Positions 14,060 to 17,293 of a stretch of DNA of 64,000 bases are shown here, in pieces. The translations under genes were made by a program, and so were the position numbers. The notes under the pieces were generated by a model. That model saw nothing but the letters and a program-made list of their open reading frames with translations. It made no database searches and had not been told where the DNA came from. The stretch is from the sequence record NC_025447.1; one strand, given 5' to 3'. Origin of the DNA: Escherichia phage 121Q. How positions within the stretch are numbered: the first letter of the stretch is position 1; the number at the start of each line of letters is the position of its first letter.

Positions 14060-14626
14060 ATGGTCAAATCTTTATTACCGCCACCAAAACGTCACAAAAT
14101 CAAAGAAATGAAAGAACAACGTACATTAAAGATGTACATCAATTTAGTTAAGTTACTGTGTAAAAGTCCATCGCTCAAAGCAGAGTTTAAAACTGATGAT
14201 GACCGCAAAGCACTAATTGAGATGAAGTATATGCTCAGTAAAATGTCCTTTTACAAATTTGTAAAAGAATACGCATCTGACCCATTTAGTCCTCGTTGGA
14301 GAGCCAAACCAAGAGAGTATTTTTACGGTGGTTCATATACGGATCTCATTCAAGACACAGTGATGGGAGTTGAATTTGAAATCGATTATGAGCCGAATGG
14401 TGTGGAAAGCTGGCCGATTGAGAAACGTTTACCAAGTGAAGAAGAAATTTATGTTTATGCAAGAAAACTTTCAAATTTCAGTTCAAGAATTACTCTAGGC
14501 AATTTAGATTCATTTATTATTTTCTATACACGTGTTGGTGTAGATAAAATGGTAACTAAACTCAATGAACTTTCATTACAACAAAAACAGATTAATGCAT
14601 ACAAAGACATTACTGATTTATACTAA
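14060..14626 (+). CDS. hypothetical protein, member 1 of a tandem three-paralog family
   Basis: AGGAGG RBS; shares block (K.S.L...D.DR..L...KY.LSK) with ORFs 14639 and 15151. Confidence 0.55.
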   Translation: MVKSLLPPPKRHKIKEMKEQRTLKMYINLVKLLCKSPSLKAEFKTDDDRKALIEMKYMLSKMSFYKFVKEYASDPFSPRWRAKPREYFYGGSYTDLIQDTVMGVEFEIDYEPNGVESWPIEKRLPSEEEIYVYARKLSNFSSRITLGNLDSFIIFYTRVGVDKMVTKLNELSLQQKQINAYKDITDLY

Positions 14627-14638
14627 TGAGGAATGGAT

Positions 14639-15154
14639 ATGTTTTTTGGATCAGTTGGAAAACAAAACAGTACTTTAATTTGGCATGAAATTATCTTTAA
14701 AATTATATCTAAAAGCTACTCACTAAAGGATATTATTACCACAGATAATGATAGACGTATCCTGTTAGATGCAAAATATAAATTGAGCAAACACCCTTTA
14801 CTTTCTTTAATCATTGATTACGTTAATGATTATGAATCTAGTCGTTGGAAGTGGGAAGACGGCGGTTTATTTCGTGGAAAAACATTCTACGGTGCGGAAC
14901 GATATGTTTTCAGTGATACATCAAATGGCGTTAAGTTTGTTATTAGAAACTTTAACTCCAAAGAAAATGATTATCTTGAAAGTGGAGTGAAAGTATATAT
15001 CGATAATAATAGCAATGTACTAACATATGACGAATCACTAATTATGTTACAAATAATGCGTGGAGTTGAAGGTGTAAGAAACAACCTTACTAAATTGAAA
15101 ATCCAGCAAAATGATATACATAATAGACAGAAAATTAAGGGTTTATATAAATGA
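14639..15154 (+). CDS. hypothetical protein, member 2 of tandem paralog family
   Basis: Start placed at ATG 14639 (MFFGSV...), 7 nt after GAGG; track start 14633 is also possible. Confidence 0.5.
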   Translation: MFFGSVGKQNSTLIWHEIIFKIISKSYSLKDIITTDNDRRILLDAKYKLSKHPLLSLIIDYVNDYESSRWKWEDGGLFRGKTFYGAERYVFSDTSNGVKFVIRNFNSKENDYLESGVKVYIDNNSNVLTYDESLIMLQIMRGVEGVRNNLTKLKIQQNDIHNRQKIKGLYK

Positions 15155-15660
15155 TTTCATTTTTCAAAAAGAAACAAAAAGTTGATGAAACCGGATTAGA
15201 ATCGTTTCTGTGGACTCTTATCATCAAAAAAAGCCCATTGATGAAAGAATATGCTATCAATGATGCTAATAGAAAAACTATCATTGAATACAAATATGAA
15301 TTATCTAAATGTGATCCAATTGTTTATCACTTTGCGAAGTACTGTTCAAAAAATTTATCGGATATCACAATCGACCACGAGTCAGTCCCGATGAGTTTTC
15401 CTTATGGTGATTGGGTAGATACTTTTGATATTTTTGATGGGTCAAATGGTTTCAGTTTCTTTTACTCGTCAAATAAAGCAAATGTTCGTATTAAAACAGA
15501 CATAGGTTGGACACAGCATAGCTCAAATAAAGAAGATTATAATTTATTAGCTGACGTATACCGAAGTGTGAAGAATTCAAAGGATATTGATGAAAGAATT
15601 AAAAAGCAAAATCGTATATCTTTATCACTTGAAACATACAAGTCAAAGTATGGTGGTTAA
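15151..15660 (+). CDS. hypothetical protein, member 3 of tandem paralog family
   Basis: ATGA overlap with upstream gene; paralogous motif ANRKTIIEYKYELSK. Confidence 0.55.
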   Translation: MISFFKKKQKVDETGLESFLWTLIIKKSPLMKEYAINDANRKTIIEYKYELSKCDPIVYHFAKYCSKNLSDITIDHESVPMSFPYGDWVDTFDIFDGSNGFSFFYSSNKANVRIKTDIGWTQHSSNKEDYNLLADVYRSVKNSKDIDERIKKQNRISLSLETYKSKYGG

Positions 15661-15662
15661 CT

Positions 15663-16064
15663 ATGACTACAGTTGATGATATCTATAGCACTATACGCAA
15701 TATGAGTACAGATAGAAAAGTATTTGGCGATAAAGAAAAATCTAAGTGTTATGGTATTGATTCTTTTGATATAATTTCTTATGAGTACAATACAAGTGGA
15801 AATAGTTCACTGAATATCGTCTGTCCTCGTGACCCAGAAAATAATTTTATGTATGTTGAAATTAATAATGATGGAATGTTTTTTACAAAAGTTTTCAAAG
15901 GTGGAATTAATTACGAACCTATTGAATGTATGAATGAAGAAACTTTCTTTCAAGAAGATACAATTATCAATTTAGGTTTTAGTTTTGATGATTATAAAAC
16001 ATTAGAACATGACTTTAATCGTTATTATAATGGTTTCTTAAAGGAGTTAACAATTTATCTATGA
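15663..16064 (+). CDS. hypothetical protein
   Basis: 133-aa ORF, ATGA-overlapped with the downstream nucleotidyltransferase gene. Confidence 0.5.
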   Translation: MTTVDDIYSTIRNMSTDRKVFGDKEKSKCYGIDSFDIISYEYNTSGNSSLNIVCPRDPENNFMYVEINNDGMFFTKVFKGGINYEPIECMNEETFFQEDTIINLGFSFDDYKTLEHDFNRYYNGFLKELTIYL

Positions 16065-17293
16065 ATAACCAATATATTGAACAAACAATAGTGAAACACT
16101 TGGCTGGGTCACAAGCCTACGGAACCAGTACACCTGAAAGTGATACTGATTATCGTGGTATTTTTCTTGCTAATAAAGAATTTATTCTTACACCCTTCTA
16201 TAAGGTCAAAGAGGTAGCTGATAAAAGCGAAGAAGATACTAAATTCTATGAGTTGAATCAGTATTTAAAATTATACACTGAAGCTAACCCTAATATTCTT
16301 GAATCACTTTGGGTTGAACCTGAACACATTGTTGAAAGTACTGAAATTTATGACTATCTTCGTTCATTTAACCAAAAACTTCTTAGTTCCAAGATTGCAT
16401 TTTCATATACTGGTTATGCATATAATCAGATTAAGCGTATGACAAATCATCACGGTTGGATGGATAAAGAGCGTATTGCTGAAAAACGATTAAATGAGAT
16501 TTTAGAAGAACACCCTGTCGATGAGGTTCTTGCGTGGATGTATGATTCATTCCCACAGTATCTTGTTGAACGTTTAGATACATCCAACTTACATCCATTT
16601 AATGCTAAAAAGATTGATTTTGAAAAATATATGCGTGATACATCATTGCAGTTAGTTTCGAAAAATCCATTAAAGCAATATCATTTCGTAAGATTAGTGC
16701 ATAACTACACTACTGAAAAAATTCTTGATCGTGATTTCAATTTATTGAATTTTAATAATGGTTATGAACTAATTCATTACGGAGAAAACATTTTTGCGAT
16801 TGTTAAGAATCCTAATGAAAGCACTATTAACCATGATGGTTCATTGCGTTATTTTTCAAAAGAACGTAGTACTGAAGAGTTGAAAAACAAACCAGAACTA
16901 ATTGTCAAATTTAACGAAAAAGAATATCAGGAAAATAGTGAGAATAGGAAAAGTTATCATAAATGGAAAGAAAATCGTAATGCCAAACGTGCTATTTTAG
17001 AATCACAACACGGATACGATTGTAAACATGCTATGCACACAATCCGACTTTTGAATAGTGCAGAAGAAGCATTACAAAGTGGAATTATTCAAGTTAAACG
17101 ACCAGATGCACAAATGTTGATGGATATTCGTAATGGTAAATGGAAGTATGAAGAAGTATTAGAATATTTCGATGATAAAGTACAATACATTCGTGATGTT
17201 CTATATAAGAAATCAGTACTTCCTAAAAAACCAAACATCAAGTTAGCATCAAAAATTATCATTGATATTAGAGAAATGCAATGGTATAAGTAA
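16061..17293 (+). CDS. Pol-beta-superfamily nucleotidyltransferase with C-terminal helical domain
   Basis: N-terminal HLAGSQAYGTSTPESDTDYRGIF matches the G-S-x(9-12)-D-x-D nucleotidyltransferase signature; 410 aa; family could not be assigned by eye. Confidence 0.6.
   Translation: MNNQYIEQTIVKHLAGSQAYGTSTPESDTDYRGIFLANKEFILTPFYKVKEVADKSEEDTKFYELNQYLKLYTEANPNILESLWVEPEHIVESTEIYDYLRSFNQKLLSSKIAFSYTGYAYNQIKRMTNHHGWMDKERIAEKRLNEILEEHPVDEVLAWMYDSFPQYLVERLDTSNLHPFNAKKIDFEKYMRDTSLQLVSKNPLKQYHFVRLVHNYTTEKILDRDFNLLNFNNGYELIHYGENIFAIVKNPNESTINHDGSLRYFSKERSTEELKNKPELIVKFNEKEYQENSENRKSYHKWKENRNAKRAILESQHGYDCKHAMHTIRLLNSAEEALQSGIIQVKRPDAQMLMDIRNGKWKYEEVLEYFDDKVQYIRDVLYKKSVLPKKPNIKLASKIIIDIREMQWYK

Follow-up and report, generated by a model that had tools for sequence, protein, structure and literature searches.

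An RlaP-family nucleotidyltransferase and a translationally coupled small acidic protein in a probably early operon of an Asteriusvirus jumbo phage

A 410-aa protein (NT) encoded in the 64-kb stretch of phage DNA analysed here (the window) was assigned by its sequence to the RlaP family of RNA 3'-end nucleotidyltransferases, and its gene was found to be preceded by that of a small acidic protein, P4, and by three tandem paralogs, P1 to P3. On balance, the locus is probably an early RlaP repair operon in which P4 would be a partner of NT and the paralogs would be accessory factors. The transferase itself is of an ordinary, known type, and P4 alone is mildly new. The source of the window was an Asteriusvirus jumbo coliphage (121Q/PBECO4/phAPEC6 group), and the sequence was 99.7% identical to that of phage BF17. 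All five ORFs lay where the first-pass annotation had placed them, and its description of the gene order was confirmed. Its T4-type framing was wrong for a phage of this genus, and the transferase could not be counted as a function foreign to T4, which has a homologue, NrdC.11 (PMC12776372). The five genes were close-packed and under purifying selection relative to phage Ecwhy_1 (pN/pS 0.09-0.31), and DNA-repeat, Rfam and tRNA scans of the block gave no match. Apart from RlaP and its coupled partner, the block is what jumbo-phage genomes usually contain; in phAPEC6, no function is known for 83% of the predicted proteins (PMC7247149).

Table 1. Features of the locus and their positions in the window
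Feature	Position	Strand	Description	Basis
Composite terminator/promoter module	13997..14037	+		Sequence scan: promoter 11/12, terminator 10 pairs
P1	14060-14626	+	188 aa, pI 9.2, phrog_18641	ORF; pN/pS 0.31
P2	14639-15154	+	171 aa (173 aa from 14633), pI 9.3-9.4, phrog_18641	ORF; pN/pS 0.23
P3	15151-15660	+	169 aa, pI 8.7, phrog_7868	ORF; pN/pS 0.10
P4	15663-16064	+	133 aa, pI 4.4, orphan family phrog_22376	ORF; pN/pS 0.09
NT	16061-17293	+	410 aa, RlaP (PF10127), Pol-beta superfamily	Pfam, PHROG, alignment
Remainder of transcription unit, outside the module	17308..20844	+		ORF list, PHROG matches, terminator scan
Virion protein ORF	17371-17499	+	42 aa	Downstream cassette
Tail-fibre-like protein	17462-17998	+	178 aa	Downstream cassette
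Tail protein	18000-20789	+	929 aa	Downstream cassette
Terminator	20821-20844	+		Scan
CCA-adding-type enzyme	33066-34178		PF01743, same phage	

The family of NT was determined by profile-HMM searches, in which Pfam PF10127 (RlaP) matched residues 13-131 with 59.3 bits (cut-off 23, E 6.3e-16) and PHROG 388, labelled 'nucleotidyltransferase', matched residues 4-409 (2.8e-76). A total of 844 homologues of NT were found, PF10127 being absent from a single one of the 120 listed; 663 phage records held a homologue, and in several GenBank records it was already named 'nucleotidyltransferase'. The G-S...D-x-D signature proposed from the letters alone was verified as G16, S17, D28 and D30, and the third catalytic acidic residue, which had been left to be sought, was located at D59. 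These five residues were all invariant in an alignment of 17 homologues down to 41% identity. In RlaP enzymes the RNA-binding cleft is formed by a helical C-terminal domain together with the NTase domain. The C-terminal part of NT, about 110 residues, was strongly conserved and basic (pI 9.5), with R306, N307, R310, D320, K322, H326 and R329 invariant, and the two domains were separated by an insertion of about 65 aa (about residues 133-200) that occurred only in the RaK2-like jumbo clade. Searches of solved structures by sequence, with NT and with its profile as queries, returned no relative. The generic Pol-beta signature is all that NT has in common with cGAS/DncV-like signalling nucleotidyltransferases or with enzymes for the synthesis or sequestration of defence signals. 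A CD-NTase identity, to which we give next to no probability, was contradicted by the sole Pfam match, which was specific to RlaP and well over threshold, by PADLOC, in which NT matched neither a CD-NTase nor any other defence system at E <= 0.1, and by the neighbourhood, in which orphan proteins and tail genes were found and no effector or Cap gene.

The coupling of P4 to NT was also verified, the stop codon of P4 overlapping the start of NT (ATGA). The P4 family is small: five clusters only were recovered by exhaustive HMMER among 1.84 billion representatives, and nine by the word-indexed protein search. In the phages whose gene order was checked (Asteriusvirus, EJP2, RaK2, Munch and two metagenomic lineages), P4 always stood zero or one gene upstream of the RlaP gene. 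Compared with Ecwhy_1, P4 and NT had similarly saturated synonymous divergence (pS 0.77 and 0.72), whereas that of P1 and P2 was low (0.11 and 0.19), indicating that the P4-NT pair had been swapped together as a unit. P4 would thus be a lineage-specific partner of NT, translationally coupled and co-inherited, and judging from the gene arrangement only, it most likely binds or regulates NT. RlaP can do without it, since P4 was missing in BF and XbC2, the closest outgroup phages, whose RlaP is 56-57% identical. No solved structure related to P4 was found by sequence. The model of P4, built from a shallow alignment (pLDDT 51), contained five strands and gave a weak lead to the acidic binding proteins p32/gC1qBP/Mam33; that fold is an alpha-beta7-alpha-alpha trimer with seven strands and an acidic surface, and P4 had no Pfam match.

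The arrangement could also be understood as a toxin-antitoxin-like or self-regulated pair, in which acidic P4 would mask the basic RNA cleft of a potentially harmful RNA-tailing NT until a substrate or signal appears. The ATGA coupling with the small gene first and the contrast in charge between P4 (pI 4.4) and the basic C-terminal domain of NT (pI 9.5) fit this idea, which we nevertheless regard as unlikely: no toxicity is known for RlaP enzymes, P4 is absent from most of the 663 phage records with an NT homologue, and the fold match of P4 is a lead only at its pLDDT. PADLOC and Pfam returned nothing from the antitoxin or MNT/HEPN/AbiE families, and P4 matched no known toxin or antitoxin family in Pfam, NCBIfam or PADLOC. 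Membership in the MNT-HEPN, AbiEii-AbiEi or MenT-MenA families was rejected, P4 having no profile match and NT matching RlaP only.

The block lies behind a composite terminator/promoter module. A hairpin at 13997-14020 has a 10-bp stem followed by a T-run, and its loop and 3' arm contain the -35 element TTGACG (14009-14014), with TATAAT at 14032-14037, 17 nt downstream; a terminator was also called by ARNOLD at this site in G17. The same architecture at the same position was found in Munch, EJP2, Serratia phage BF and Xanthomonas phage XbC2, where the stem sequences differ, so that the terminator/sigma-70 promoter module is kept across five lineages. It is predicted to close the upstream large-protein operon and to open the unit with the five genes. 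Near-consensus sigma-70 sites numbered 13 on the plus strand of the window against about 2.6 expected, a back-of-envelope figure from base composition, and the promoter is a consensus match rather than a mapped transcription start. Because the block begins behind this conserved module, early expression is likely. None of P1-P4 and NT was detected in the virion proteome of phAPEC6, in which the neighbours gp314c, gp315c and gp323c were detected. The five genes would form the promoter-proximal portion of an Asteriusvirus transcription unit, which the host sigma-70 RNA polymerase probably transcribes early, and their products would be non-virion accessory proteins. Against this, the unit continues into virion genes with no terminator between, gp314c and gp315c being the virion proteins that represent the downstream cassette in phAPEC6. 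The T4-type late motif TATAAATA occurred once on the plus strand of the window, at 7909, and the shorter motif TATAAAT had neither strand bias nor intergenic bias; these motifs gave no late-promoter signal upstream of the fibre cassette.

The claim that P1, P2 and P3 are paralogs held far past chance. P1 and P2, its nearest paralog, were 30% identical over 183 aa (E 2e-15). The BLASTP match of P3 to both was confined to the N-terminal 40 aa or so (E 1e-4); P2 matched phrog_7868, the family of P3, over its full length (4.9e-12), and a single HMM recovered all three at E <= 1e-55 and no fourth copy within the window. P3, the orthologue of RaK2 ORF002, is an older branch of the family. P1 is preceded by the ribosome-binding site AGGAGG (14049-14054), and P2 and P3 overlap by ATGA. 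The start of P2 at 14639 is likelier than that at 14633, since GAGG (14628-14631) lies 7 nt upstream of it, and 14639 is also the GenBank start of P2 in G17. The family is basic (pI about 8.7-9.4), with 0-4 tandem copies per lineage. The word-indexed search with the paralogs found 10 clusters only, and from these and the nine clusters and five exhaustive-HMMER representatives of P4 both families were found in RaK2-like phages only. Profile searches with P1-P4 in Pfam, NCBIfam and PADLOC gave nothing usable, the only matches being at chance level (P1 to DUF2290, E 0.003; P3 to an HNH PHROG, E 0.005; scattered single-member Pfam matches), and PHROG families 18641 and 7868 are labelled 'unknown function'. 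No solved structure related to P2 was found by sequence. Its AF2 model (pLDDT 65, shallow alignment) was predicted with three helices at the N-terminus, a sheet of five strands and a C-terminal helix of 40 residues, a weak lead to the head-plus-stalk scaffolds XRCC4, PAXX and SAS-6, in which a coiled-coil stalk makes the dimer.

The first-pass annotation had suggested that the trio could be fibre chaperones. Large proteins do lie on both sides of P1-P3, namely the 898/195/939-aa proteins upstream, the first of which has a virion-associated homologue, and the 178/929-aa tail proteins downstream, and three paralogs could answer to three large neighbours. However, the presence of paralogs does not track fibre genes. 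Ecwhy_1 keeps all five block genes, P1-P3 included, and lacks the downstream fibre cassette, which varies within the genus; in RaK2, Munch, BF and XbC2 the paralogs are accompanied by no fibre genes at the downstream position; and EJP2 has the upstream large-protein trio and zero paralogs. Moreover, a strong terminator and a sigma-70-type promoter stand between the upstream large genes and the paralogs, and no chaperone-family profile matched in Pfam or in the two PHROG families. A role of P1-P3 in the assembly of neighbouring fibre-like proteins is therefore very unlikely, being largely refuted by the gene content of Ecwhy_1 and EJP2. The paralogs would rather be early, non-structural accessory factors of this host-conflict operon that bind nucleic acid or protein, probably as dimers, and their family appears to have undergone repeated duplication and loss at the locus among RaK2-like jumbo phages.

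A repeatedly reshaped locus is also what would be seen if the paralogs and P4 were independent early host take-over or anti-defence genes that share the promoter of RlaP and are unrelated to RNA repair, the locus being a hotspot of accessory-gene gain, duplication and loss. This is a possible explanation, although a less probable one than the repair operon. It agrees with the variable copy number of the paralogs across lineages, with the presence in RaK2, Munch, BF and XbC2 of another tandem paralog family, an acidic one, immediately downstream of RlaP, whose place in the 121Q window is taken by the fibre cassette, with the unrelated genes in the block of relatives (DUF4326, a DNA methylase, Thg1), and with the mosaic synonymous divergence from Ecwhy_1 across the block. 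EJP2 has P4 and NT without the paralogs, so the paralogs are dispensable for the P4-NT pair and may be functionally unrelated to it. Against independence, P4 is kept upstream of NT in each lineage that possesses it, with coupling and divergence in common, and the paralogs remain in the RlaP operon across genera in which NT is only 56-59% identical.

RlaP was first characterised biochemically in 2025, and to our knowledge no phage RlaP, T4 NrdC.11 included, has an assigned biological role; the literature on NrdC.11 contained no functional data. The enzyme extends RNA at the 3'-OH by 1-2 NMP, with preference for Mn2+ and for the 5' tRNA half, and has no activity on DNA; activity is known only for Pseudomonas enzymes, and T4 NrdC.11 is counted as a member of the family (PMC12776372). 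RlaP is the most prevalent repair nucleotidyltransferase of jumbo phages and tracks RNA ligases (PMC7824862), and in one Asteriusvirus genome an RNA ligase and 8 tRNAs are encoded (PMC12805682). Further RNA-repair context is given by the CCA-adding-type enzyme at 33066-34178 of the window and by Thg1 in the operon of BF and XbC2. Within the 64-kb window, no RNA ligase, polynucleotide kinase, kinase-phosphatase or tRNA gene was found, so the 'ligase-associated' neighbourhood does not hold locally. A tRNA-half substrate and a repair role of NT are likely from its family membership. The likely substrate would be the 5' half of a tRNA that has been cut and trimmed by a host anticodon nuclease, and the phage RNA ligase, encoded elsewhere in the genome, would then reseal a functional tRNA. 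Among the roles first considered for the transferase, RNA repair is thus the one that stood, while the cGAS/DncV-like and toxin-antitoxin readings fell away, as did the fibre-chaperone idea for the paralogs. A counter-defence role is therefore plausible, and it is the one already put forward for RlaP in jumbo phages (PMC7824862); biochemical support is given in PMC12776372.

Here a phage RlaP comes with a small partner protein that is conserved and translationally coupled to it, and in relatives Thg1 is encoded in the operon as well. This makes the locus a practical system for asking if anticodon nucleases that remove nucleotides, such as RloC, are countered by phage RlaP, and if the specificity of RlaP depends on accessory proteins. 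A bolder proposal, which we consider distinctly unlikely, is that P4 and the paralogs are dedicated subunits of an RNA end-processing machine around RlaP, the paralogs serving as dimeric XRCC4-like scaffolds for keeping the ends of a broken tRNA in place or bringing in the phage ligase, and P4 as an acidic, p32-like gatekeeper of the RNA cleft of RlaP. If true, the eukaryotic XRCC4/ligase IV/Pol-X end-joining complex would have a counterpart in RNA repair, one in which separate paralogs could be tuned to separate host anticodon nucleases.

Several known systems can be compared with the locus. The Thg1 tRNA-His guanylyltransferase of BF and XbC2 is an RNA-end repair enzyme encoded in the homologous operon, where it is flanked by paralog-family members; that operon begins with the same terminator/promoter module, and the orthologous RlaP lies downstream of Thg1. 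Differently from NT, Thg1 is absent from the window, has an unrelated fold and acts on 5' ends. The CCA-adding/poly(A) polymerase family (PF01743) shares with NT the Pol-beta superfamily and the rebuilding of RNA 3' ends, but it is a separate Pfam family with another C-terminal domain, and NT had no PF01743 match. T4 NrdC.11 was only 29.5% identical to NT, over the N-terminal 145 aa or so. Known RlaP proteins have, like NT, an N-terminal Pol-beta domain with the G-S motif and three acidic residues. Compared with them, NT carries the interdomain insertion and stands without an adjoining RNA ligase, and its gene is preceded by that of the coupled orphan acidic P4 and by tandem basic paralogs.

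The 3.4-kb region holding the five genes shared 99.7% identity with Escherichia phages BF17 and phAPEC6 by megablast, and 97-99% with phages of the 121Q group, including G17 and PBECO4. These relatives are jumbo myoviruses of the genus Asteriusvirus, with genomes of about 350 kb, and the T4-type setting assumed by the first-pass annotation was therefore dropped. The gene block itself had been described correctly: three paralogs (P1 to P3), a small acidic protein (P4) and a nucleotidyltransferase (NT) were each found where they had been placed, packed as an operon. P1 and P2 were separated by 12 nt and P3 and P4 by 2 nt, an ATGA overlap was present at the P2/P3 junction, and the stop/start ATGA overlap coupling P4 to NT was confirmed. 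The P2 start used by both GenBank and the first-pass annotation (14639) was the start preceded by a GAGG at the proper distance. In GenBank, four of the products were labeled hypothetical proteins and one "(putative) nucleotidyltransferase". Compared to the 86%-identical phage Ecwhy_1, pN/pS was 0.09-0.31 for all five genes, which are under purifying selection by this comparison.

Coordinates of the features discussed, within the window or within each comparison locus
Feature	121Q window	RaK2 (L004)	Munch (L005)	EJP2 (L006)	BF (L007)	XbC2 (L008)	Other locus
P1 (+)	14060-14626
P2 (+)	14639-15154
P3 (+)	15151-15660
P4 (+)	15663-16064
NT (+)	16061-17293
Terminator/promoter module	13997-14037		3981-4022	5620-5660	312-348	592-630
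Second (acidic) paralog family		3113-4031	7633-8524		6245-7637	6251-8089
DUF4326 gene	7100-7432		5703-6011	5688-5999	2463-2765	2284-2589
Fibre cassette	17308-20789
42-aa ORF of the cassette	17371-17499
195-aa and 939-aa genes or equivalents	10659-13992		611-3974	2257-5607			phAPEC6 (L010, MK817115) 5649-9060
939-aa gene	11173-13992
Next convincing terminator after the block	20821-20844
Sigma-70 promoter with that hairpin	20791-20844
Late-promoter motif region	7880-7951
Cluster of sigma-70-like sites	48992-50157
441-aa ATPase gene	50327-51652
CCA-adding-type gene	33066-34178
NUDIX gene	34286-34687
Frameshifted RlaP gene							metagenomic contig (L012) 6830-8071

NT scored 59.3 bits on the Pfam family PF10127 (RlaP), for which the threshold is 23, and PHROG 388 covered its full length. 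A large protein collection contained 844 homologues, and of the 120 listed a single one lacked PF10127; by tblastn, relatives occurred in 663 phage records, including PVP-SE1-like and rV5-like phages, Lak phages, phage G and T4 NrdC.11. In an alignment of 17 sequences, the G-S...D-x-D signature noticed earlier (G16, S17, D28, D30) was invariant, and so were the third catalytic acidic residue (D59) and a C-terminal motif (R306 N307 R310 ... D320 K322 H326 R329), while an inter-domain insertion of about 65 residues was confined to the RaK2-like jumbo clade. No defence-system model of PADLOC matched NT, and NCBIfam returned no match of note. Among the functions first listed for the block, RNA-repair transferase was thus upheld by the RlaP match; NT did not fall in the CD-NTase (cGAS/DncV-like) or toxin-antitoxin families also offered, and the fibre-chaperone option failed as well, so that the interpretation was right in part. 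RlaP, named from its association with RNA ligases, was characterised in 2025 as extending RNA 3'-OH ends by one or two NMPs, with a preference for Mn2+ and the 5' half of cleaved tRNA; DNA and protein are not substrates, and T4 NrdC.11 is counted as a member (PMC12776372). The best-supported reading is that NT is a phage RlaP, predicted to act as an RNA 3'-end repair transferase within an early accessory operon.

The locus was compared among RaK2, Salmonella phage Munch, Escherichia phage EJP2, Serratia phage BF, Xanthomonas phage XbC2 and two metagenomic contigs. The gene order was constant: a protein trio (roughly 900, 195 and 920 aa), a terminator, zero to four basic paralogs, P4, RlaP and a variable operon end. 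BF and XbC2 carried paralogs and RlaP with no detectable P4, the slot of which held an unrelated small acidic ORF. In both phages, a Thg1 tRNA-His guanylyltransferase (Pfam 2.6e-30), a DUF4326 protein and a DNA methylase were interleaved with the paralogs; with Thg1 alongside RlaP, this operon has two RNA-end repair enzymes. RaK2, Munch, BF and XbC2 carried a second tandem paralog family directly after RlaP, strongly acidic (pI 4.0-4.5) and in two to four copies; the window lacked it and had a fibre cassette in its place. The DUF4326 protein, of about 100 aa, showed 63-76% identity between distant jumbo phages (Pfam 4.3e-21 for the Munch copy); its gene sits inside the RlaP operon in the relatives and, following the G17 annotation, between anaerobic ribonucleotide reductase genes in the window. 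The label "NrdA" on the XbC2 copy looks wrong. Separately, RlaP of a metagenomic RaK2-like contig was frameshifted after codon 20, with the remainder 76% identical to NT and P4 intact; either the contig was misassembled there or the gene has recently become a pseudogene.

P4 (pI 4.4) belonged to a small family, with 9 clusters in an indexed search and 5 representatives when 1.84 billion proteins were searched exhaustively with HMMER. It occurred in 50 phage records, all from RaK2-like jumbo phages. In each of the compared lineages that carry it, P4 was immediately upstream of RlaP or, in RaK2-type genomes, one gene away. P4 is best read as a lineage-specific partner of NT. Synonymous divergence from Ecwhy_1 was 0.11 for P1, 0.19 for P2, 0.37 for P3, 0.77 for P4 and 0.72 for NT. 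P4 and NT thus have a common history that P1 and P2 do not share, a pattern consistent with their exchange as one module, and the stepwise rise across 14060-17293 indicates a recombination boundary around P3.

The three tandem genes were verified as one family by BLAST, PHROG and a family HMM. P1 and P2 were 30% identical (E 2e-15); P3 matched its paralogs by BLASTP over the N-terminal 40 or so residues only (E about 1e-4), its PHROG was matched by P2 at full length (4.9e-12), and the HMM recovered each at E <= 1e-55 with no other member in the window. In reciprocal BLAST, both P1 and P2 matched RaK2 ORF001, consistent with an Asteriusvirus-specific duplication, and P3 paired with ORF002, consistent with an older split. 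The family was basic (pI 8.7-9.2) and, like P4, restricted to RaK2-like jumbo phages. Pfam, NCBIfam, PADLOC and solved structures yielded no relative of P1 to P4. A P2 model from 11 input sequences (pLDDT 65, pTM 0.58) showed three N-terminal helices, a five-stranded sheet and a 40-residue C-terminal helix, and its BFVD matches were uncharacterised proteins of related jumbo phages only. The suggestion that the paralogs are fibre chaperones was contradicted by presence and absence among relatives: Ecwhy_1, of the same genus, lacks the fibre cassette and keeps all five genes, and EJP2 has the upstream trio of large proteins, P4 and RlaP and no paralogs. The paralogs are best regarded as early, non-structural proteins of a family prone to duplication, linked to RNA repair by conserved operon membership only.

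The fibre cassette, which some members of the genus have and others lack, comprised a 42-aa ORF, a 178-aa fibre-like protein and a 929-aa tail protein, and megablast matches to WPEC5 and Turkey3 stopped at the NT gene. The phAPEC6 virion proteome included gp314c (929 aa), gp315c (42 aa) and gp323c (898 aa); gp316c (NT) and gp318c-gp321c (P4, P3, P2, P1) were not detected in it. The 42-aa product corresponds to gp315c (69% coverage), and its "i-spanin" label in phage CRJP21 is probably a misannotation. Neither the 195-aa nor the 939-aa gene has a CDS in the phAPEC6 record, so the mass-spectrometry search on its virions had no way of identifying their products, and their absence from the published structural proteome is uninformative. 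The N-terminal 120 or so residues of the 939-aa protein were 35-40% identical to Munch_170 and EJP2_153, the 195-aa proteins encoded just upstream of its orthologues, which suggests that the two proteins may have a common N-terminal module, e.g. an attachment domain.

A 10-bp hairpin terminator directly followed the upstream 939-aa gene. Its loop and 3' arm contained TTGACG, followed by a T-run and then by TATAAT 17 nt downstream. The same hairpin-embedded -35 (TTGAC[A/G]) and -10 occurred at this junction in Munch, EJP2, BF and XbC2; the same architecture in five lineages with different stem sequences points to a conserved functional module. Across the window, 13 plus-strand sites agreed with the sigma-70 consensus in at least 11 of 12 positions, against about 2.6 expected (an estimate from base composition). 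The block is predicted to be transcribed early by host RNA polymerase. The next terminator showed the converse layout: a perfect 12/12 promoter (TTGACA-17-TATAAT) ended 1 nt before the strong hairpin; transcripts from it would begin within the stem and evade termination, and upstream read-through would be stopped. Six sigma-70-like sites (11-12 of 12) fell within 1.2 kb elsewhere, two of them (50036, 50130) intergenic upstream of the ATPase gene and four within coding sequence. The sole exact T4-type late-promoter motif on the plus strand, TATAAATA at 7909, lay just past a terminator hairpin and 42 nt upstream of the 898-aa virion protein gene; the shorter TATAAAT had neither strand nor intergenic bias in the window.

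RNA-repair partners are present in the genome and not at this locus. An RNA ligase and tRNAs have been reported for an Asteriusvirus genome (PMC12805682). The window also encoded a second RNA 3'-end nucleotidyltransferase, of the class II CCA-adding/poly(A) polymerase family (PF01743 at 7.4e-19, plus an RNA-binding domain), with a NUDIX protein just downstream. A comparative study of 224 jumbo phages describes RlaP as their most prevalent repair nucleotidyltransferase and predicts that, ahead of ligation, it puts back the nucleotides that RloC and similar nucleases have taken away (PMC7824862). Given its PF10127 membership and this literature, NT is unremarkable: its family is known and has been catalogued in jumbo phages before, and a role has already been proposed. 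Orphan neighbours are unsurprising in a jumbo phage, as 83% of the predicted proteins of phAPEC6 are of unknown function (PMC7247149). As far as the searchable literature was covered, the conserved coupling of RlaP to an orphan acidic protein is undescribed, and so are the flanking paralog arrays; both are of modest interest and experimentally tractable.
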